From a virus (lineage: Duplodnaviria > Heunggongvirae > Uroviricota > Caudoviricetes), in IMG/VR virus record IMGVR_UViG_3300031998_000032, positions 1-44,041 of that record: a stretch of DNA of 44,041 bases. The stretch is one strand, 5' to 3'. This document shows positions 3,357-11,917 of the stretch, piece by piece. The translations under genes were made by a program, and so were the position numbers. A model generated the notes under the pieces. It saw nothing but the letters and a program-made list of their open reading frames with translations. It was not told the DNA's origin and did no database searches. Positions within the stretch are counted from its first letter, which is position 1, and the number at the start of each line of letters is the position of its first letter.

Positions 3357-3977
3357 ATGAGCAAAGTAGCTAATTATCAGAACAAGGCATTCGTGGGTAT
3401 ATCCCACCTGTTCTTCATCAAAGGTGGCTTTGGTGATAACTTCGATATGACTGGTAAGTCTGCTGCCAATGGCGATATCCTCGAACTCCCTGTGGCTCAG
3501 GATGGCGGTTTCACCTACAACGGCGGAACACCGAGCATCGACCACTACAAGGTTCACGGCATCGCAGGCGACTGGACCAGCCGTATGACTCCCGGTGAGA
3601 CCGAGATCAACCTGTTCATCCCCACCATCAACGACGACGTTCTGGCCGCTTGCGGATTCCAGAGCATCTCTGATGTCGGTTCTACAGCTCTCGGCAAGGC
3701 TGTTATCAACGCCGGTGCCGGTGAGTACAAGTTCACTCCGTCAGCGGGTTACACCTTCGCTGAGACCCAGAAGGCTTTCTCAGTTGGTATCGCAGCCCTG
3801 AACGATGAGGCCAATCAGATGTTCGCCATCAAGAAGGTGAAGCTGATGGCTTCCATCCTATTCGACTCCGCCGACACCGCAAAGCCTATCGGTATCACCC
3901 TGACCGGCTCCAACGCCGCATCAAGTGCTCCCGATGCAATGGGTATCTTCGACGGCGTTACCGGCGAGGGCAACTAA
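3357..3977 (+). CDS. Major tail (tube) protein
   Basis: 206 aa, beta-rich, highly biased codons, followed by a terminator. No sheath gene lies nearby, which fits a non-contractile tail. Confidence 0.7.
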   Translation: MSKVANYQNKAFVGISHLFFIKGGFGDNFDMTGKSAANGDILELPVAQDGGFTYNGGTPSIDHYKVHGIAGDWTSRMTPGETEINLFIPTINDDVLAACGFQSISDVGSTALGKAVINAGAGEYKFTPSAGYTFAETQKAFSVGIAALNDEANQMFAIKKVKLMASILFDSADTAKPIGITLTGSNAASSAPDAMGIFDGVTGEGN

Positions 3978-3988
3978 ACATCAACCAG

Positions 3989-4030
3989 AAGGACGGTATA
4001 GGTGTTACAGCCTGTGCCGTCTTTCCTTTT
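3989..4030 (+). terminator. Intrinsic terminator after the tail tube gene
   Basis: AAGGACGGTATAGG-loop-CCTGTGCCGTCTTT forms a 14-bp stem with three G:U pairs, followed by CCTTTT. Confidence 0.65.
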
Positions 4031-4040
4031 ATCCGCAGGT

Positions 4041-5168
4041 ATGAAGATAGATTATATTATCCCGATGGTCTTCGACAACGACCTCAAATGGCGCGATTCA
4101 TTCCGTCAGTGTCATTGGATTAAATACGACTCCAATAACAACGTCACACGTTGGCGCAGTATGGGAACAGAGGAGCTGCTTGTGCGTTGCATAAGAGCTT
4201 TCATGCCGTTTGTCGGCACCATACATATCCTCTTGGCCCGCGAGAGTCAGAAAAGACCATGGATGGATAACTATGGTATCCATGTCGTGTATCATCACGA
4301 GTTTATACCGCCTCAGTACCTGCCCACCTTCAACAGCCGCACCATCGAGATGTTCTTGCATCGCATACCCGGGCTGCAGGAGCGCTTCATATACTCAAAT
4401 GATGATATGTTTCCTGTGTCGCCGATGCAGGAGTCGGATTTCTTTATTGAAGAAGGTCCGTGCCTGTACAAGCAGTATATGAAACTTCCTAAGGATTTCT
4501 CACAATTCGCATGGGTGTGTAAGGAAGAAACCCAACTTTTAGCGAAGTTATTTGGTGTAGATATAACAGAGGATACATGGATATCCCTCGGTCATGGCGT
4601 CACTCCTATGCTCAAGTCAACATATGAGAATGTATGGGATTTGTTCCCCGCCAACATCCTGGGTTCCATTACCCGGGACCGTGATTGGAAGAACTACAAC
4701 CAATATCTCTTCGCTTACTATCAGCTTTTTCACGGATCTGCTGTTGAGACAGCCAACAATACGTCGTATGCCGACAACACTATGCCACTTGCAGATGTGG
4801 AGAAAACCATCATGAATGCCAAGGGTATAGTATGTGTCAATGACGCTATAAAATCCAATGACTTTGAAAAATTCACCGCTGTAGTCTCGGCGGCTATCGA
4901 AAAGAGACTGCAAACATATTTGGAGAAAACAAATTATGGCAAAGGAACCGAAAATAACACAGCCGGAGATAGATGCGCAGATGCTACTCCTGTCTCTGAC
5001 AAACAACGACGCAACGGAGGTGACAATACTCCGCACGAAGAAAAAATACAAGATCAGGTGGCTGAAAAACGGCCAGTTGACAAGACTGACTCGCCTGCTC
5101 CTACACAAGAAAAACGTGGAAAAGGAGCAAAAAACAACGGGAAGCGACGTTTTAGATTCGATTCTTGA
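4041..5168 (+). CDS. Stealth-family hexose/HexNAc-1-phosphate transferase (CpsY/XcbA/SacB-like)
   Basis: All four Stealth conserved regions are recognisable: CR1 KIDYIIPMVFDND..W; CR2 HHEFIPPQYLPTFNSRTIEMFLHRIPGLQERFIYSNDDMF; CR3 HGVTPMLKS; CR4 IVCVND. The likely start is ATG 4041 (ORF track starts at 4002). Confidence 0.85.
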   Translation: MKIDYIIPMVFDNDLKWRDSFRQCHWIKYDSNNNVTRWRSMGTEELLVRCIRAFMPFVGTIHILLARESQKRPWMDNYGIHVVYHHEFIPPQYLPTFNSRTIEMFLHRIPGLQERFIYSNDDMFPVSPMQESDFFIEEGPCLYKQYMKLPKDFSQFAWVCKEETQLLAKLFGVDITEDTWISLGHGVTPMLKSTYENVWDLFPANILGSITRDRDWKNYNQYLFAYYQLFHGSAVETANNTSYADNTMPLADVEKTIMNAKGIVCVNDAIKSNDFEKFTAVVSAAIEKRLQTYLEKTNYGKGTENNTAGDRCADATPVSDKQRRNGGDNTPHEEKIQDQVAEKRPVDKTDSPAPTQEKRGKGAKNNGKRRFRFDS

Positions 5169-5451
5169 AGACAACAAGCTGGCTTGCAAAGCCGCTGCAA
5201 TCATCACCCTTGACGGCTATTGGAAACTCTTTTTTTGGTATTGGATCAGATGGAGGTGGTTCTATTATATCAGGCAGTATGACAATATACAGCTCGAACC
5301 GATACTTCTTGTCGGTAAAAAAAAAGTTCCGCTGATGCAATTCTACAGGACTACCATATCCTTGACCGAGGCAAGGGATACGCTGATGCAGATGAGGACG
5401 GCGGAAGTAGAAGCTACCCTTCTCGCACAAAGTACGGAGCAGCCTACTTAG
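4936..5451 (+). CDS. Tail assembly chaperone (gpG-like)
   Basis: 171 aa between tail tube and tape measure genes; contains GKKKVP encoded over an A9 run (5317-5325). Confidence 0.65.
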   Translation: MAKEPKITQPEIDAQMLLLSLTNNDATEVTILRTKKKYKIRWLKNGQLTRLTRLLLHKKNVEKEQKTTGSDVLDSILEDNKLACKAAAIITLDGYWKLFFWYWIRWRWFYYIRQYDNIQLEPILLVGKKKVPLMQFYRTTISLTEARDTLMQMRTAEVEATLLAQSTEQPT

Positions 5452-5759
5452 ACCGTAAGCAATGTCAGCACCTTCTGATGTCCCGCTATTTCTTCGGGAT
5501 ATGGGAGGTGCCTGAATGGGGCTACACATGGGGTCATACAGCGGCCCAGATCCAGCTCATATACACAGACTTCCCGCTCACCGTTTACAAGGCAAACAAA
5601 GAGAGACCCAAGCCCGGAGAAAAAGGTTATACCAAGACCGCAGAGGAAGCCGCTCGTGATTACGCACGATGGAAGGCCCGCAAGGAGGAAGAGAAGCGAA
5701 AAGGTATCTCGATTGATATGAATACGTTTCTTCAGACGGGAGAGAAGAAAAAAATCTGA
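5319..5759 (+). CDS. Tail assembly chaperone extension (gpT-like), probably reached by -1 frameshift
   Basis: The -1 frame is open from 5319 (just after TAA at 5316-5318) through the 5478-5759 ORF to TGA. Confidence 0.55.
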   Translation, partial: KKSSADAILQDYHILDRGKGYADADEDGGSRSYPSRTKYGAAYLDRKQCQHLLMSRYFFGIWEVPEWGYTWGHTAAQIQLIYTDFPLTVYKANKERPKPGEKGYTKTAEEAARDYARWKARKEEEKRKGISIDMNTFLQTGEKKKI

Positions 5760-5765
5760 CATACA

Positions 5766-5800
5766 TAATGGGGGCTTTTGGGTCTCCATTATTTGTTTTA
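5766..5800 (+). terminator. Intrinsic terminator before the tape measure gene
   Basis: TAATGGGGGC / GTCTCCATTA forms a 10-bp stem with two G:U pairs, followed by TTTGTTTTA. Confidence 0.6.
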
Positions 5801-5870
5801 TTTGGTAAAATCAGTTTATTACGTTTATATTTTATTGTGATGATTACCAATTTCATAGTAAACTATCCTT

Positions 5871-5878
5871 ACATTTGA
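5871..5878 (+). promoter_or_regulatory. Bacteroidetes -7 promoter box upstream of the tape measure gene
   Basis: TACATTTG matches TAnnTTTG, 27 nt before ATG 5906 in an AT-rich gap. No clear -33 TTTG was seen. Confidence 0.5.
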
Positions 5879-5905
5879 AACAATTAAACAACAAAACACG
5901 ATAAT

Positions 5906-8900
5906 ATGGATGCTCTTCAGTTTGAAACCGAGATAAAGGGCACAGCCCTGAGAACTTTAGAACAGATACAGACCATCTTGGAGTCTATATCAAAAAAAAC
6001 CACGATCACTCTCGCTGTTGAGGGATTCGAGGATTTCAAGAGGTTTATCCAAAGTGACGATTTCAAGAATATTGCGAAGAATATATCATCTGCATTCGGC
6101 GGCAAGAAAGCCCAGAATGTCGAGCAGTTCTTTACTAACCTGCGTAATGAAATAGAGAAAGTCAAGACGGCCCTGAAGACAGATGACTTCTCGACTTTCA
6201 TGAATCAGATCGAGCAGCTCACCAAGCAGTTCTCTAACCTGAGTACCGAGTATGAGCGTTTCCTCAAGAGTACCGGTACCAAGACAGGCTCCAACCTCAT
6301 GGGTAATATGTCGAAGGAACTCGGTGATATCAAAGGCACCATCACCCAGACTAAACTCGCAGACGGAAGCCTGCAGCAGTTGGAACAGACGACCCGCCGG
6401 GCCGAGAAAGCCAGCCGTGACTTTGAGAAGCAGCAGAAGAAACAGGAGGAGCAGACGCGCAGAACCAATGAAGAGACAAACAAGCAGTCATCGGCTATCA
6501 GTCAGCTTGAAAGTATGATGGGGCGTTACCTGTCCATTTACGCCGTCGGCCGTTTCGCATCAGAGATGGCACAAATAACCGGTGAGCTGGAACTGCAGAA
6601 ACGCTCTCTCGAGGTTATCATCGGTAATGCGTCGATGGCCAACGAGTTGTACGGCACCATACGTGATATGTCACAGATGTCACCGTACACCTTCCAGGAT
6701 TTGATGAAATCCACACGTCAGCTCTCTGCCTTCGGTATCGAGACAAAGGATCTGTACGGCACGATGAAAGCCCTGTCTGATATCGGCGCCGGTCTCTCCG
6801 TTGACGTGCAGCGACTCATCCTGGCTTATGGTCACACCCGTTCATACGGCTATCTTTCCGGTATTCAGAACCGTCAGTTTGAGACCGCCGGTATCGATAT
6901 GATCGGAGGCTTGGCAGACCGTTATAACCGTCTCGCCGACGCAGAGGAGCGTGCCGGCCGTGCCGCGGAACACGTCACACGTAAGGATGTGTTCAAACGT
7001 ATGGCAAAGCGTGACATCTCATTCGAGGATGTCAACGCAGTCATCATGGATCTGGACCGCGAAGGCGGTAAGTTCTTCAATATGCAGGAGCGTCAGTTTG
7101 AGACCTTGGGCGGTAAGCTGCGTAACCTGCGTAACAACTACAACATCATGATGTCGGAGATGGGTGAGCAGAACAAAGGCATACTACGTGCCGGCGTCAA
7201 CCTGCTCAACGAACTCACCGGCAATTGGGAAAAATACGGCGAAGTTATCAAAACCCTCATATGGCCTCTCGGTGCATTGAAGCTCGCCATGATTGCTGTC
7301 AATCAAACAGGTGTAGAAGGCGCAAAGATATTCAGTCGCGTGACATTACAGGGCGTACAAATAGGATTCGGAAAGATAACATCTTCCATAAAAAATATCC
7401 TGACATCTTCTACTACCTGGATTACCGCTGCCATTGCTGCTATAGCGGGTATCATCACCCATTTTACGTCTATGTCGCGTGAAGCCGAGCGCGTAGCCAA
7501 GAGTATGGCTGAGTCTGCCGAGCGTTCTGCTGCCGAAATAGATAGAATATTACAGAAGTACAATGGCGGTGCCATCAACATCTCGCCGACAAAAAGCTAT
7601 GTGAATGGTAGTGAAGTTACTACCAATAACATACAGTTCAACCGAGATGCCATGCGTTCGCTGAATCTCGGTTATGAGCTCGAGGAGCTGAAACGCAAGC
7701 TGCAATCCATGTCACCTTTCTACGAAGGAGATTTGGTGGATATATTCAAACTGCAGAGCCAGGAAGAACAGTTTGAGGCTATCATACGTAAGATGGAGAG
7801 TTACCGTCAGTCCGGGGATATCCTCTCCGCATACGAGGATGTCTTTGCAGATAGCAGTAAGGGAGGTTTCTTTAAAGGCATGGAGTCTTTGGAGACCAAC
7901 CTTAAAGATTATGCTGACAACATCACGCGCATAGGCAAGAGATTGCGTGAAATGCGCGATGATGATGTGCTGACACCCAACTTGGTTGACGGTTTCAATA
8001 AGGAACTTAACGGTATTTTGGGAGACGGCAATCTGGCTTCAAAAGTTGAAGAGTTGAGGAATTACTTCGTCAGCACACTTTCTTTGAGTGAGGACGACAG
8101 ATATCAGTTGTTCCTCTCATGGTCACAAGGTCTCAAAGATACTTATGTCAAAGCTATGGATCTTACCGGTAATGGCGCATACCAATCTCATGCTTCTTCC
8201 GGTAACCCATGGCGTTTCGGTGACCTCTTCAGAAAAAGTGCTGTAAAATCAAAGAGTGATCTTGAGGCTAACATTGAGAATGTCGCCAAAGGGTTGGAGA
8301 CTGCACTCGCTAATGTCGATAGCTATGAAACTCGTATCGCCACAATGCGTACCCGATTCACGTCGTCTATGGAGGGAGCCAATCTCAGTGCTGATGTGTC
8401 ACGCACACTGTTTGAATCCTTGCTTCGCAATGTCAGTGGCAGGCTGGGTAATGATGATTACACTCAGTTCCTGACAACTGAGTTTATGAGCGATTTCGGC
8501 AAGAGTATGTCCGATGCTATCAAGAATAATCCCAACTGGACGCAAGGGCAGGCTTTTGATGCAGCAGCGGGAATAGCCGGTAACATTAAAGAACAATGGA
8601 TACAGGCCGGTCGAGATGTTGCCTCTTTCTGGGGCGACGGTTTTGTGGAAGAATTGCAGACTTCGGCGAAATCAATGGTTTCTGTCCGTCAGGCATGGCA
8701 GGAGGAACTGCAGGGCGCATTCAAATATCAGGATGAGCAAGGTCAGGATCAATGGGGTTACTCGGAATTTTATAACGCATTCACCAACAGAGTGCGCGAA
8801 GCAACAGAATCCGATGATATAGGTACTTTCTTCGGTGAGACCATGAAGAAAGTGCATGATGACATGGCTAAAACAATAGAAAATCTCTTTAAGCCTGCGT

Positions 8901-11900
8901 CTAAGAAATGGGGAATTAATATCGAACCGGACCTGAAAGTCAAGACCGGCAATCTCGAACAACTCAAGAAAGTAAGGGATGATATTGCAAAACGTCTTGA
9001 TATAACAGTCCTCAATCCCGCGACAAGAGAAGGACTTGAGGAATTGAGCAAAGAACTGAATAAGGTTATTCTCCTCGAGGAAACAGCCAAGGAGTACGGA
9101 TTCCTATACGGCGAAGATAAGAAAAAAAGTGATGGTACCGGCTATAAAGCAGAATTCGAGAAGCGGTGGGATGAGCGTATTCGCATCATGAAGGAAGCCT
9201 ACGATTGGTATGACAAATGGGAGAAGTTGGTCGGACATGACAAGGCGTTGGAGAAGGTCAACGAACGTTATCAGGATATATTCGAGCAGTGGCGCACCGA
9301 CAACAAGATACCGCTTGATTTCGACATCAAGGATATAGCCGATTACAAGAAGTATGTGGAGCAGATACGCGACTCCGCTCTTGAACTTTATAACAAACAG
9401 AAGAATAACCCGGCCAAGAATAACGGTCAGGAGGCTCTGCGTGTATACCGTCAGGCTGTATCATTACTTACCGATATCAATTACGATAACGTCACCAAGG
9501 CAGCAGAGAAGTTCAGTTCCATAATCAAGAAGACCCTTGATGATATGGATAAGAGGTGGGATCTCTACAGGTCCGTCCTGGAGGCCACCCATGATCAACA
9601 GATGGCTTATGACATAGCCGGTATGTCTGAAAGTGAAATGGAGGTTAGTACCGAGGCGGCCGCTGCACGTATCAACCTTGAGGATTTGATATCCGATGCA
9701 GGATTCTCAGGTATAGAACTCGATCTGTCACTTGACGAGGAAGGTATACGTGATATGTTCAAAAATGCCATACCTGACACAGATGACGTCGATAAGTATG
9801 CAACCAAAATCAACGGTCTCGTAGATGCGTATCAGAAATGGCAGGAGCTGCAACGTGAGATCATCAAATCGGATGTGCAGGTGTTCGCAAGACTCATGGG
9901 TGGCGGTCAGTCCTACGAAGATCAGCTTCATAACATCAACGAAGAAGTACGTGAGCAGATAGGAGCCAACCTCCGTCTCGCTAATCTGTATAAAGAGACA
10001 GAAGGCAAGAAAGGTATCTCTCCCGAACAAGAAGCTGAAGCCAACAGACGCGCCATAGCTCAGGGTGATTATAAGAAGCTCCAGCTCTCCGCCAACTATA
10101 TCAATGCCATGAACAACGCTGTTGCTATGACAAGCGATAAGTTTGAGGAGGTTAAAAAATCTATCGACGCCACTCTCGAGTCGATGCTCAGACATGGCGA
10201 TATATCCAAAGAGCAGTATGTGACTGAGAAGCAGCGTCTTGATACTGCTGAACAAAGTCGTATCGGTGCACCCGGTAGCGCTTTTGAAGCTCAATTACGG
10301 GGAGGCTTTGAAGGTCGTGCTTCATATTACCGCTCTTTGCAGAGTATGTACCTGAATCAGATGGGTGCCTCTGAATACTCCGAGGATGCTGATTCCGCAT
10401 ATCAGACGAATAAGAGGAACGCTGAGGCCGCTAAGATTCTGGCTGATGAGGCACAGAAGATGGCTGTCGCTCTTGAGAGAGTTCAGAATGCAGCAAACAA
10501 ATTGATTTCTGCTATGAACTACTCCAAGGAATTCTTCAACGCGATAGGTGACAAGGATACAGGATCGGGTTTAGAGAAAGCAGGTACGATGCTGAGCTCG
10601 TTATACAACGGAGTGTCGACGGGAGCACAGATAGGAGGAGTGTGGGGCGGTATAATAGGAGGTGCCTTGGGTATGGTTGTCGGTGCATTCCAAGTGCAAC
10701 ATCTTGATGCCCAGGAAACGCATCAACGCAACAAACTTCTCATTGACAAATTAAATAATATCAATAAAAACCTTGATAAGATAGCGGAACGCTCTTTAGG
10801 GTATGCATCGATGGATGACCAGACGAAAAGCTATTTTGCCGCTGAAATAGCAAGCCACAAAGAGGGGCGAGAGAGGTTGAAAGAGTTAAAGGATGTCGAT
10901 ACGTCCAATATGACAGAAGAAGAACTGAGAAAGTATGAGAGTGAAGTGGCCTTCAGTCAAGCAAAGGCTAACAAATATAGCGAGCACACTATTAAGGCTA
11001 TGGAAGAAGCTGAAGAAAGTGGAAGTGCTTATATGGCGCAATACGCATCTCTCTTGGCTCAACGAGATCGTGCCGCCAGTGATTTGCGTACCGAAGAAGG
11101 AGATAAGGATGGCTCTAAGGAACAAATAGAATCCTACAAACAGCAGATTGCTGAGTTGGATGACCAAATTATACATTTTGGTCAGGATTTGGCAAAAAAT
11201 CTGTGGGGTATCGACATTAAAGGATGGGCTGATCAGATAAACGATGCTCTCATGAATGCTTTCGAGAACGGCGAGAACGCAGCCAAAGCCTACGAGGACA
11301 CCGTCCGTTCTATCATGCAGAGCGTAACGAGTCAGATGATGAAGATAGGTATTCTGCAGCCGATGATGGATCAACTGCAGAAGCAGCTCTTCGGTACCCA
11401 AAACGATAAAGGCGAGTATGTAGGTGGTACCGTATCATCCAAAGAACTCCTCAATGACCCCGAAGGCTCAGCTAAGAAACTCGTAGAGAAGTCTAAGGAT
11501 TTCTTTGATGAGCAGGGTAACCTCATGATTACCGCCGCCAGGGAATTTTATGAGGGTATGAACGCGATGATGGGTGGCTCTCTCCGTAACCCCGACACCA
11601 AGACACTCTCAGCGAGCGTACAGGGTACCTCTGAGCAGACCTCAGGACTACTTGCCGGTTATGTGGCTACCACCATGCAGGATGTCGCGATGCAGCGCAC
11701 GATGTTGGAGCATTATCTCAATGAGATGTGGCCCACATACATCGATGATTACGTCAAGAGTATGACGAATAACATCAGTTTGATTCAGTCCAACGTAAAG
11801 GATATACGTGATGCTATCGTCGAACCTGGAGGTATGGCGGATATGATCTACGAGATACATAGTATCTTCGATGCGGTATCCAACGGCTCCAGGATCAAGT

Positions 11901-11917
11901 CGATATCTACGGAATAA
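5906..11917 (+). CDS. Tape measure protein
   Basis: 2003 aa, largely helical/coiled-coil. Carries the tape-measure domain LEVIIGNAS.ANELY..IRDMSQMSPYTFQDL...RQLSAFG...L.LAYG...G.L.G...RQF. Confidence 0.92.
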   Translation: MDALQFETEIKGTALRTLEQIQTILESISKKTTITLAVEGFEDFKRFIQSDDFKNIAKNISSAFGGKKAQNVEQFFTNLRNEIEKVKTALKTDDFSTFMNQIEQLTKQFSNLSTEYERFLKSTGTKTGSNLMGNMSKELGDIKGTITQTKLADGSLQQLEQTTRRAEKASRDFEKQQKKQEEQTRRTNEETNKQSSAISQLESMMGRYLSIYAVGRFASEMAQITGELELQKRSLEVIIGNASMANELYGTIRDMSQMSPYTFQDLMKSTRQLSAFGIETKDLYGTMKALSDIGAGLSVDVQRLILAYGHTRSYGYLSGIQNRQFETAGIDMIGGLADRYNRLADAEERAGRAAEHVTRKDVFKRMAKRDISFEDVNAVIMDLDREGGKFFNMQERQFETLGGKLRNLRNNYNIMMSEMGEQNKGILRAGVNLLNELTGNWEKYGEVIKTLIWPLGALKLAMIAVNQTGVEGAKIFSRVTLQGVQIGFGKITSSIKNILTSSTTWITAAIAAIAGIITHFTSMSREAERVAKSMAESAERSAAEIDRILQKYNGGAINISPTKSYVNGSEVTTNNIQFNRDAMRSLNLGYELEELKRKLQSMSPFYEGDLVDIFKLQSQEEQFEAIIRKMESYRQSGDILSAYEDVFADSSKGGFFKGMESLETNLKDYADNITRIGKRLREMRDDDVLTPNLVDGFNKELNGILGDGNLASKVEELRNYFVSTLSLSEDDRYQLFLSWSQGLKDTYVKAMDLTGNGAYQSHASSGNPWRFGDLFRKSAVKSKSDLEANIENVAKGLETALANVDSYETRIATMRTRFTSSMEGANLSADVSRTLFESLLRNVSGRLGNDDYTQFLTTEFMSDFGKSMSDAIKNNPNWTQGQAFDAAAGIAGNIKEQWIQAGRDVASFWGDGFVEELQTSAKSMVSVRQAWQEELQGAFKYQDEQGQDQWGYSEFYNAFTNRVREATESDDIGTFFGETMKKVHDDMAKTIENLFKPASKKWGINIEPDLKVKTGNLEQLKKVRDDIAKRLDITVLNPATREGLEELSKELNKVILLEETAKEYGFLYGEDKKKSDGTGYKAEFEKRWDERIRIMKEAYDWYDKWEKLVGHDKALEKVNERYQDIFEQWRTDNKIPLDFDIKDIADYKKYVEQIRDSALELYNKQKNNPAKNNGQEALRVYRQAVSLLTDINYDNVTKAAEKFSSIIKKTLDDMDKRWDLYRSVLEATHDQQMAYDIAGMSESEMEVSTEAAAARINLEDLISDAGFSGIELDLSLDEEGIRDMFKNAIPDTDDVDKYATKINGLVDAYQKWQELQREIIKSDVQVFARLMGGGQSYEDQLHNINEEVREQIGANLRLANLYKETEGKKGISPEQEAEANRRAIAQGDYKKLQLSANYINAMNNAVAMTSDKFEEVKKSIDATLESMLRHGDISKEQYVTEKQRLDTAEQSRIGAPGSAFEAQLRGGFEGRASYYRSLQSMYLNQMGASEYSEDADSAYQTNKRNAEAAKILADEAQKMAVALERVQNAANKLISAMNYSKEFFNAIGDKDTGSGLEKAGTMLSSLYNGVSTGAQIGGVWGGIIGGALGMVVGAFQVQHLDAQETHQRNKLLIDKLNNINKNLDKIAERSLGYASMDDQTKSYFAAEIASHKEGRERLKELKDVDTSNMTEEELRKYESEVAFSQAKANKYSEHTIKAMEEAEESGSAYMAQYASLLAQRDRAASDLRTEEGDKDGSKEQIESYKQQIAELDDQIIHFGQDLAKNLWGIDIKGWADQINDALMNAFENGENAAKAYEDTVRSIMQSVTSQMMKIGILQPMMDQLQKQLFGTQNDKGEYVGGTVSSKELLNDPEGSAKKLVEKSKDFFDEQGNLMITAAREFYEGMNAMMGGSLRNPDTKTLSASVQGTSEQTSGLLAGYVATTMQDVAMQRTMLEHYLNEMWPTYIDDYVKSMTNNISLIQSNVKDIRDAIVEPGGMADMIYEIHSIFDAVSNGSRIKSISTE

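Follow-up and report, generated by a model that had tools for sequence, protein, structure and literature searches.

A Stealth-family sugar-1-phosphate transferase gene in the tail operon of a Bacteroidota phage and its possible part in virion decoration

INTRODUCTION

Why does a tailed phage carry a gene for a predicted sugar-phosphate transferase in the midst of its tail genes, and which molecule would such an enzyme modify? The question is raised by an open reading frame (ORF) at positions 4041 to 5168 (+ strand) of a 44,041-nucleotide stretch of DNA, here called the window, which opens an IMG/VR virus record (IMGVR_UViG_3300031998_000032) that is 108,041 bp long and rated 100% complete. 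The source is a large phage that infects Bacteroidota of the gut or rumen. An earlier note, made from the letters of the window alone, had assigned the ORF to the Stealth family, had credited it with all four conserved regions of that family, and had favored phosphoglycosylation of the phage's own virion over remodeling of the host capsule. To our knowledge, glycosylation of virions by phage enzymes has been shown solely in a small number of mycobacteriophages, whose particles it protects against antibodies.

RESULTS AND DISCUSSION

The ORF encodes a divergent Stealth enzyme with an intact catalytic set

The ORF opens with an ATG at 4041 and closes with a stop codon at 5166 to 5168, giving a product of 375 amino acids (P0002); this choice of start codon agrees with relatives, whose proteins open with MKIDY or MIDY. 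Membership in the Stealth family was judged by its four conserved regions as represented in Pfam, CR1 to CR4 (Sperisen et al. 2005). A profile hidden Markov model (HMM) search, proposed earlier as a check on the assignment, returned Stealth_CR2 (PF11380) over residues 37 to 138 at 84.4 bits against a cutoff of 39.4, and at 87.3 bits when the genome was searched in six frames. The models of CR1, CR3, and CR4 gave no match at E ≤ 1. A cellular Bacteroides Stealth protein, 29% identical to the phage protein, matches CR1 and CR4, and CR3 weakly, and these short profiles appear too specific for the divergent phage clade. By BLASTP, residues 1 to 290 align to residues 19 to 340 of this cellular protein, and the aligned segment covers CR1 (19 to 45), CR2, CR3 (231 to 265), and CR4 (308 to 348). 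The assertion that all four conserved regions are present therefore stands by homology, whereas by HMM it stands for CR2 alone. No match to the protein was found in PHROGs or NCBIfam.

Sequence and fold comparisons agree on the family. With phmmer, Mycobacterium tuberculosis CpsY (8j2n) was matched at 1.5e-16 over residues 18 to 247, and GNPTAB was matched as well. An alignment of 60 homologues was used both to measure conservation and as input for AlphaFold2 (AF2), whose model has a predicted local distance difference test (pLDDT) score above 90 across residues 1 to 297. Foldseek matched this model to CpsY 8j2n with an E value of 1.4e-17, a target-normalized template modeling score of 0.84, and a root mean square deviation of 2.4, and to GNPTAB with an E value of about 1e-16; the next fold class (GT8, LARGE1, and other GT-A folds) was weaker by about 12 orders of magnitude.

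We mapped catalytic residues on the basis of a mutagenesis study of CpsY (PMC10668966) and a mechanistic study of GNPTAB (PMC9388126), the latter proposing a mechanism with a His base, an Arg, and an Asp-bound Mg. E103, N120, and D122 of the phage protein correspond to E305, N322, and D324 of CpsY; D122 also corresponds to the Mg ligand D408 of GNPTAB, H185 to its proposed general base H956, and R214 to R419 of CpsY and R986 of GNPTAB. The mapped key residues are invariant or at least 90% conserved among the 60 homologues, as is each of the motifs ID-x-[IV]-x-P-M-V-F-x-x-D-x-x-W, NDD, GH-x-x-x-P, R214, and GIVCVND (at least 90%). All of the catalytic residues are present in the catalytic domain (residues 1 to 298; positions 4041 to 4934), which holds E103, N120, D121, D122, H185, R214, and the CR4-like GIVCVND at residues 262 to 268; the NDD aspartates, whose loss would have counted against the assignment, are intact. 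Across six lineages, pairwise differences at codon positions 1, 2, and 3 of this domain are 0.275, 0.246, and 0.517, the pattern of purifying selection. As read from the sequence, there is no signal peptide, and CR1 begins at residue 2. The profile match, the sequence and fold matches, and the catalytic residues together confirm the original observation and identify the product as a putatively soluble Stealth-type enzyme, a divergent member of the family. Because the catalytic residues are intact, we predict that it uses a UDP-sugar as donor and places the hexose- or HexNAc-1-phosphate on a hydroxyl group.

The gene is predicted to be expressed with the tail assembly chaperones

Upstream of the Stealth gene lie the gene for the major capsid protein (371 to 1525, + strand; 384 amino acids; phrog_29 major head protein, E value of 1.6e-12), four small genes, and a gene for a 206-amino-acid protein (3357 to 3977, + strand) that ends in ...MGIFDGVTGEGN. 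Pfam gave no match for the small neighboring genes. The AF2 model of the 206-residue protein has a pLDDT of 70, and its top Foldseek matches in the Protein Data Bank, weak in themselves (E values of 2e-3 to 0.1), are almost all of the tail-tube or Hcp type, including Bxb1, YSD1, lambda gpV, and T1. Given these matches and its place directly 5' of the chaperone and tape measure genes, we call it the major tail-tube protein.

The gene that follows the tube and Stealth genes is the tail assembly chaperone gene G (4936 to 5451, + strand; 171 amino acids; P0122), which is intact and conserved in all relatives, and for which neither Pfam nor PHROG gave a match. We assigned it from the layout typical of G/GT chaperones, that is, a gene between the tube and tape measure genes that contains a slippery site and whose −1 frame is open, all kept in seven lineages. 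The slippery site is an A9 run (5317 to 5325, + strand; G GTA AAA AAA AAG) at a GKKKV motif kept in all lineages, where a −1 frameshift would yield the GT fusion. From the slip site the T frame is open for 146 codons, to 5759 (5319 to 5759, + strand), and third-position diversity drops to 0.124 in the part coding for both G and T, a dual-coding signature.

Between the tube and Stealth genes stands a terminator-like hairpin of 16 pairs followed by a T-rich run (3988 to 4025, + strand). Whether or not they bear Stealth, 77 of 80 relatives have a hairpin with a minimum free energy of at most −15 kcal/mol within 75 nt after the tube stop codon; it probably acts as an attenuator and fixes the tube:chaperone ratio. 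On the + strand of the window, no TAnnTTTG motif occurs 5' of position 5870, promoter scans being weak evidence. The position of the hairpin, the overlap of the ORF with G, and the lack of such a motif before 5870 lead us to infer that Stealth and G/GT are expressed jointly by read-through from the head-tail operon. The unusual position of the gene among virion genes, to which the earlier note had drawn attention, thus holds, with one amendment: the ORF does occupy the slot between the tube and chaperone genes, but its last 233 nt (4936 to 5168) lie inside the chaperone gene, in another frame.

Selection keeps an overprinted reading frame open

The last 77 codons of the Stealth ORF (233 nt; 4936 to 5168, + strand) overprint the start of G. 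Residues 299 to 375, approximately, are read in a frame one base behind that of G, whose first 77 codons occupy the +1 frame. The overlap measures 230 to 251 nt in seven lineages, and gene callers applied to related contigs retained the long Stealth ORF and omitted G. G is nonetheless clearly predicted to be translated from its own ATG, given that its N terminus is conserved as far as distant phages. Differences at codon positions 1, 2, and 3 of G are 0.15, 0.13, and 0.34 inside the overlap compared with 0.13, 0.10, and 0.38 outside, and third-position diversity is 0.339 within the overlap and 0.383 beyond it. Since G shows a similar codon pattern inside and outside the overlap, the amino acid sequence of the Stealth extension must be hardly constrained.

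The openness of the frame is another matter. When G was resampled synonymously, with its protein sequence fixed and phage codon usage retained, the Stealth frame stayed open in 0.05 to 0.45% of cases (0.0005 to 0.0045). Each lineage has 25 to 32 sites at risk of forming a stop codon, and T is found at none of them, whereas the same frame contains 3 to 12 stops in all 23 outgroup homologues of G. These comparisons point firmly to selection as what keeps the overprinted frame open in the seven lineages. The extension itself contains many basic residues, has KRRFRFDS at its C terminus, and is a predicted disordered segment (pLDDT below 50 over residues 306 to 375). Relatives outside this clade have proteins of about 290 amino acids that stop just before G and lack the extension; an ancestral stop codon would have been lost in this clade, and docking or translational coupling are our guesses at what the extension does.

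Two other accounts of the long ORF were discarded. A frameshift fusing Stealth to G is not supported by the A6 run in the overlap, which is not conserved, L002 having none before the GKKKV site. Sequencing error does not explain an overlap common to seven independent assemblies.

The slot between tube and chaperone genes is a hotspot shared with putative partner glycosyltransferases

A pattern search of IMG/VR with the single protein returned zero matches, and searches based on alignments returned 71 loci, with the Stealth alignment as probe, and 80 loci. For the insertion site itself we used chaperone G as the probe and examined the 74 IMG/VR loci containing both a tube gene and G. The slot is empty in about 53 of the 74, with a gap of 88 to 165 nt between tube and G, which bears out the statement that these two genes are normally adjacent. 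Fifteen of the 74 loci hold Stealth, either alone (8 loci) or as a fusion of 737 to 746 amino acids joining Stealth, DUF4422, and a domain we call X (7 loci). The remaining six carry other small inserts (394 to 709 nt; L130, L131, L178, L179, L190, and L191). The survey of relatives that had been suggested thus revealed a variable site, and the presence of Stealth switches at least 10 times on the tree of tube proteins; the junction of tube and G is evidently a general hotspot for accessory genes.

The cassettes found in the slot follow several layouts, namely DUF4422-X-Stealth, X-Stealth, X-GT92-Stealth, Stealth-GT92-X, and the fusion, and Stealth adjoins GT92 and/or X in dozens of IMG/VR loci. 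Domain X falls in phage-only clusters with a faint link to GT2 and is GT-A-like. In the slots surveyed, no flippase, transporter, or membrane anchor was found beside Stealth. On the strength of the domain fusions and gene neighborhoods, we propose that Stealth, GT92, and X form a recurring functional set.

The phage studied here appears to carry the same set in split form. GT524, a protein of 524 amino acids encoded outside the window (G000 97,958 to 99,532; L037:3959-5533), matches GT92/GT2_4 in its N terminus and is 41% identical to domain X in its C terminus. Its gene is intact and lies about 13.6 kb upstream of Stealth around the genome, upstream of a block with HNH, portal, and terminase genes. 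The split layout recurs in G008, from a divergent lineage, where a GT524 homologue of 59% identity lies about 13 kb upstream of Stealth. When a candidate acceptor was sought beside GT524, nothing Ser-rich was found there.

Serine tails on virion proteins accompany Stealth in relatives

An enzyme set that decorates serines at the C termini of virion proteins would be expected to go together with Ser-rich tails, and this is what the relatives display. In relatives that bear Stealth, the capsid protein often closes with a long run of Ser, such as ...GEASSSSGSSSSSE and ...DGSSSSSASSSSASSSSE, and the tailed ORFs are major head proteins (phrog_29). Among the relatives found with G as the probe, a poly-Ser capsid tail occurs in 6 of 15 that bear Stealth compared with 0 of 50 that do not (Fisher p of 6e-5, not corrected for phylogeny). 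The state of the capsid tail changes four times on the tree, and independent pairs run in the same direction in two or three cases and never in the opposite one. When slot cassettes were tabulated against capsid tails (loci not dereplicated), cassettes with extra glycosyltransferase domains had the capsid tail in 16 of 17 cases. Ser tails are also found on a protein of 146 to 149 amino acids encoded right after the capsid gene and on tube-sized proteins. The tube protein shows a weaker trend in the same direction: the presence of at least two Ser among its last eight residues agrees with that of Stealth in about 5.5 of 7 independent pairs and disagrees in 0.3. Within the clade of the window phage, tube proteins end in ...PSQS (L002), ...KSAS (L004), and ...QSQS (L011).

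Taken together, these associations make virion phosphoglycosylation a well-supported prediction for the Ser-tailed relatives.

The poly-Ser runs are usually closed by Glu or Asp (...SSSSE). Examples are found at L203:4465-5712 and 5723-6163, L217:5546-6844 and 8664-9245, L210:6335-7534, and L196 to L200.

Sister lineages retain truncated, catalytically dead copies

In three diverged clusters (P0011, P0012, and P0028), the same in-frame deletion of about 115 residues has taken out CR3 with its His and Arg, leaving Stealth proteins of about 262 amino acids (e.g., L005:6001-6792 and L201:1055-1843). These copies have ADR in place of NDD and R in place of E103. They are nevertheless under purifying selection, with differences of 0.29, 0.20, and 0.61 at codon positions 1, 2, and 3 over 183 codons, and they still overprint G, by 239 nt. 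Between L005 and the window, the flanking G is 96% identical, compared with just 53% for Stealth residues 1 to 130. The truncated protein looks like a retained pseudoenzyme.

The phage proteins form a clade apart from cellular Stealth enzymes

Among GTDB species genomes, close relatives of the phage protein (34 to 42% identity) occur on four contigs only, all from metagenome-assembled genomes (MAGs) and labeled Bacteroidales, Bacteroidetes, Prevotella, and Treponema. An X/GT524-type partner adjoins Stealth on two of the four, which is why we regard the contigs as derived from phages or prophages. The identity of cellular Stealth genes to the phage protein is just 26 to 31%, which marks the phage clade as distinct; we infer that it derives from glycan-type loci of Bacteroidales. 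By tblastn, such cellular loci (L043 to L059) hold two to four Stealth paralogues together with GT92. One of them, from a Bacteroides sp. MAG (L052:6132-12874), combines three Stealth paralogues with GT92, a TupA-like ATP-grasp protein, a lipid-A-type acyltransferase, and an epimerase.

The remark that no phage Stealth system had been described fits the searches of literature and databases that were made. A full-text search of the literature found no paper on a phage Stealth enzyme. In GenBank, neither a tblastn search of the protein against 50,697 phage records nor a megablast search of the first 12 kb against phages gave a match, and the three-domain fusion yielded weak matches to DUF4422 alone, in uncultured fecal phages. 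In BFVD, viral Stealth folds are limited to two giant-virus entries, A0A5J6VJV6 and A0A5J6VJ25 (E value of 4e-13). The gene family is nonetheless common in uncultured phage contigs of IMG/VR.

What does the phage enzyme modify?

Our leading answer, put forward tentatively and at somewhat short of an even prospect, is that late transfer of sugar-1-phosphate is the first step in building a phage-encoded phosphoglycan on a phage-made protein. Stealth would be made late, alongside G/GT and at read-through levels, and would work with GT524, the two together building a phosphate-linked glycan. In relatives, the most likely acceptors would be the poly-Ser C-terminal tails of capsid and tail-tube proteins, which would undergo Ser-O-phosphoglycosylation and be extended by the further glycosyltransferase domains. 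In the window phage, candidate acceptors would be the tube protein, whose short end contains Thr/Ser, or a different protein of the virion or of its assembly.

Several observations weigh against this answer. Across the 108 kb of this phage, no plausible gene has a Ser/Thr-rich tract or tail; its capsid protein ends in GIVTVWKDQA and lacks a Ser-rich tail, and its tube protein ends in ...GVTGEGN. Where Stealth stands alone in the slot, the capsid tail is present in 2 or 3 of 6 or 7 cases, and 4 of 6 or 7 are without it. The statistic on Ser at the end of the tube protein was picked after inspection of the data, and its sign-test p is about 0.06. In a second class of loci, often on contigs of 100 to 430 kb, GT92 comes after Stealth, X being present in some cases, and the structural genes are elsewhere. 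In one 98-kb phage (L007:7001-12672), Stealth sits among genes for YopX, DUF3310, Tad2-like/Sequestin, and N6/N4 DNA methylase proteins, with DUF4422 and an X-domain gene 4 kb downstream and the structural genes distant. The acceptors of the cellular relatives are probably not proteins, since those relatives lie in glycan-type loci with Stealth paralogues, GT92, epimerase, and acyltransferase genes. Finally, the retention of a dead copy implies that catalysis is not the sole selected property in the clade. The preference for virion phosphoglycosylation expressed in the earlier note accordingly finds strong comparative support in the Ser tails of relatives, but the phage on which it was based has no such tail.

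Part of this evidence would suit an enzyme that acts on the host. Stealth and GT524 might add sugar-phosphate to capsule, lipopolysaccharide or lipooligosaccharide, or a lipid-linked glycan at the cytoplasmic face of the membrane, with superinfection exclusion, receptor masking, or lysogenic conversion as the outcome. All characterized bacterial Stealth enzymes act on glycans, CpsY having been assayed on glucan (PMC10668966). The nearest cellular homologues sit in the glycan-type loci of Bacteroidales described above, one relative's record is classed as a provirus, the set occurs among accessory genes in other phages, and the window phage is without a Ser-tail acceptor. However, no promoter-like motif belonging to the gene itself was found, and its ORF overlaps the chaperone gene behind the tube hairpin, an arrangement that favors late expression in the lytic cycle over expression in a lysogen. 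The lack of a flippase, transporter, or membrane anchor in the surveyed slots and the confinement of poly-Ser capsid tails to Stealth-bearing phages also speak against modification of host glycans, which we regard as rather unlikely. Alternatively, the protein may have a mainly noncatalytic role in this clade, its N-terminal half and basic tail serving tail assembly or translational control of G/GT while catalysis is dispensable or being lost. An extension held open by selection in seven lineages, truncated dead derivatives that remain under purifying selection and overlap G by 239 nt, and the absence of Ser tails in the clade would all fit. Yet every catalytic residue is kept in the window and in five other full-length lineages, GT524 is intact, the amino acid sequence of the extension is barely constrained beyond the avoidance of stops, and relatives of about 290 amino acids manage without it; we judge a chiefly noncatalytic role to be unlikely. 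Host-glycan remodeling and a noncatalytic role are both compatible with virion decoration.

Phage glycosyltransferases that modify DNA are well known, and in some phages the Stealth gene lies near a DNA methylase gene and antidefense-type genes, so a sugar phosphate might be placed on a modified base of the phage DNA. This idea gained no support: no thymidylate-synthase or hydroxymethylase-type gene was found in the genome, the gene sits in the tail operon, and the link to Ser-tailed virion proteins has no explanation in terms of DNA. We consider it highly improbable.

A more far-reaching version of virion decoration, which we offer as a doubtful extrapolation, is that a large group of Bacteroidota phages covers its capsids and tails in a glycan joined by phosphodiester bonds, perhaps a sugar-phosphate polymer resembling teichoic acid, that Stealth primes on C-terminal poly-Ser, a protein chemistry known elsewhere from eukaryotic parasites and slime molds. 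The clade of the window would then have been rewired: its Ser tails would be gone, its selected, overprinted tail of 77 residues would dock to or regulate tail assembly, and some descendants would keep solely that noncatalytic function.

Comparison with known systems

The phage enzyme shares its fold and catalytic set (Glu and Asn-Asp-Asp of CR2, His and Arg of CR3, and C-x-N-D of CR4) with CpsY (8j2n) and with CsaB/SacB and CsxA of Neisseria, and the same chemistry is predicted, a UDP-sugar giving a sugar-1-phosphate ester and UMP. It differs from these bacterial enzymes in being only 20 to 30% identical to them, in consisting of a minimal 298-residue domain without spacer S2, in passing Pfam with CR2 alone, and in being encoded in a tail operon with an overprinted tail; in relatives the acceptor is probably Ser of a protein and not a glycan. 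GNPTAB (7s6n and 9bgf) has a Stealth core like that of the phage enzyme and likewise tags a macromolecule from its own system with sugar-1-phosphate. It acts on mannose of N-glycans in the Golgi lumen by means of large recognition domains, whereas the phage protein has none. The giant-virus proteins in BFVD, from an environmental sample of Megaviridae, share the fold; they are uncharacterized, belong to viruses of eukaryotes, and are 15 to 19% identical.

For the proposed acceptor, the closest parallel lies in mycobacteriophages, whose glycosylation sites are reportedly C-terminal. In mycobacteriophages Che8, Corndog, and Myrna, glycosyltransferases encoded by the phage act on its capsid and tube proteins (Freeman et al. 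2023, as summarized in PMC12363180). Phage-encoded transferases are present here too (Stealth and GT524), and in relatives Ser-rich C-terminal tails occur on the same two proteins. The enzymes described in that summary are ordinary glycosyltransferases, with no Stealth enzyme among them, the hosts are Actinobacteria, and the window phage lacks the tails. Because Ser/Thr-rich acceptor tails are absent here, we did not file this phage as a member of the Che8 type; that it works like a Che8-type virion O-glycosylation system has moderate probability.

In Dictyostelium and Leishmania, sugar-1-phosphate is placed on Ser within Ser-rich stretches, in the eukaryotic secretory pathway. This is the chemistry suggested by a Stealth enzyme with a poly-Ser tail. 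Gtr clusters and TarP of Staphylococcus aureus are prophage-encoded modifiers of surface glycans that are expressed in lysogens, often with membrane partners. Like them, the window gene encodes a phage transferase with the potential to change glycans on the host surface, but it has no TAnnTTTG motif upstream, overlaps the late gene G, and has no membrane or flippase partners in the surveyed slots.

If virion phosphoglycosylation is borne out, it would be a second, chemically different virion coat, widespread in phages of gut and rumen Bacteroidota, with consequences for immune recognition and for how phages persist in mucus, and the enzyme would be a compact tool for protein phosphoglycosylation. 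Relatives with an empty slot, with Stealth alone, or with the three-domain fusion provide a clean natural experiment. The 233-nt overprint and the selected dead-enzyme derivative, for their part, offer a tractable case of a new protein segment and a pseudoenzyme arising in an essential operon.

The operon beyond the chaperone genes

A second terminator-like hairpin, of 12 pairs, follows the T frame (5765 to 5792, + strand). Beyond it, at 5870 to 5877 and about 30 nt before the start of the tape measure gene, stands the motif TAcaTTTG, which resembles the Bacteroides −7 element, so the tape measure gene may have a Bacteroides-type promoter of its own. That gene (5906 to 11917, + strand) encodes a protein of 2003 amino acids, whose homologue in a relative matches Pfam TMP_3. 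Among close relatives, the length of the tape measure protein ranges from about 2000 to more than 3100 amino acids.

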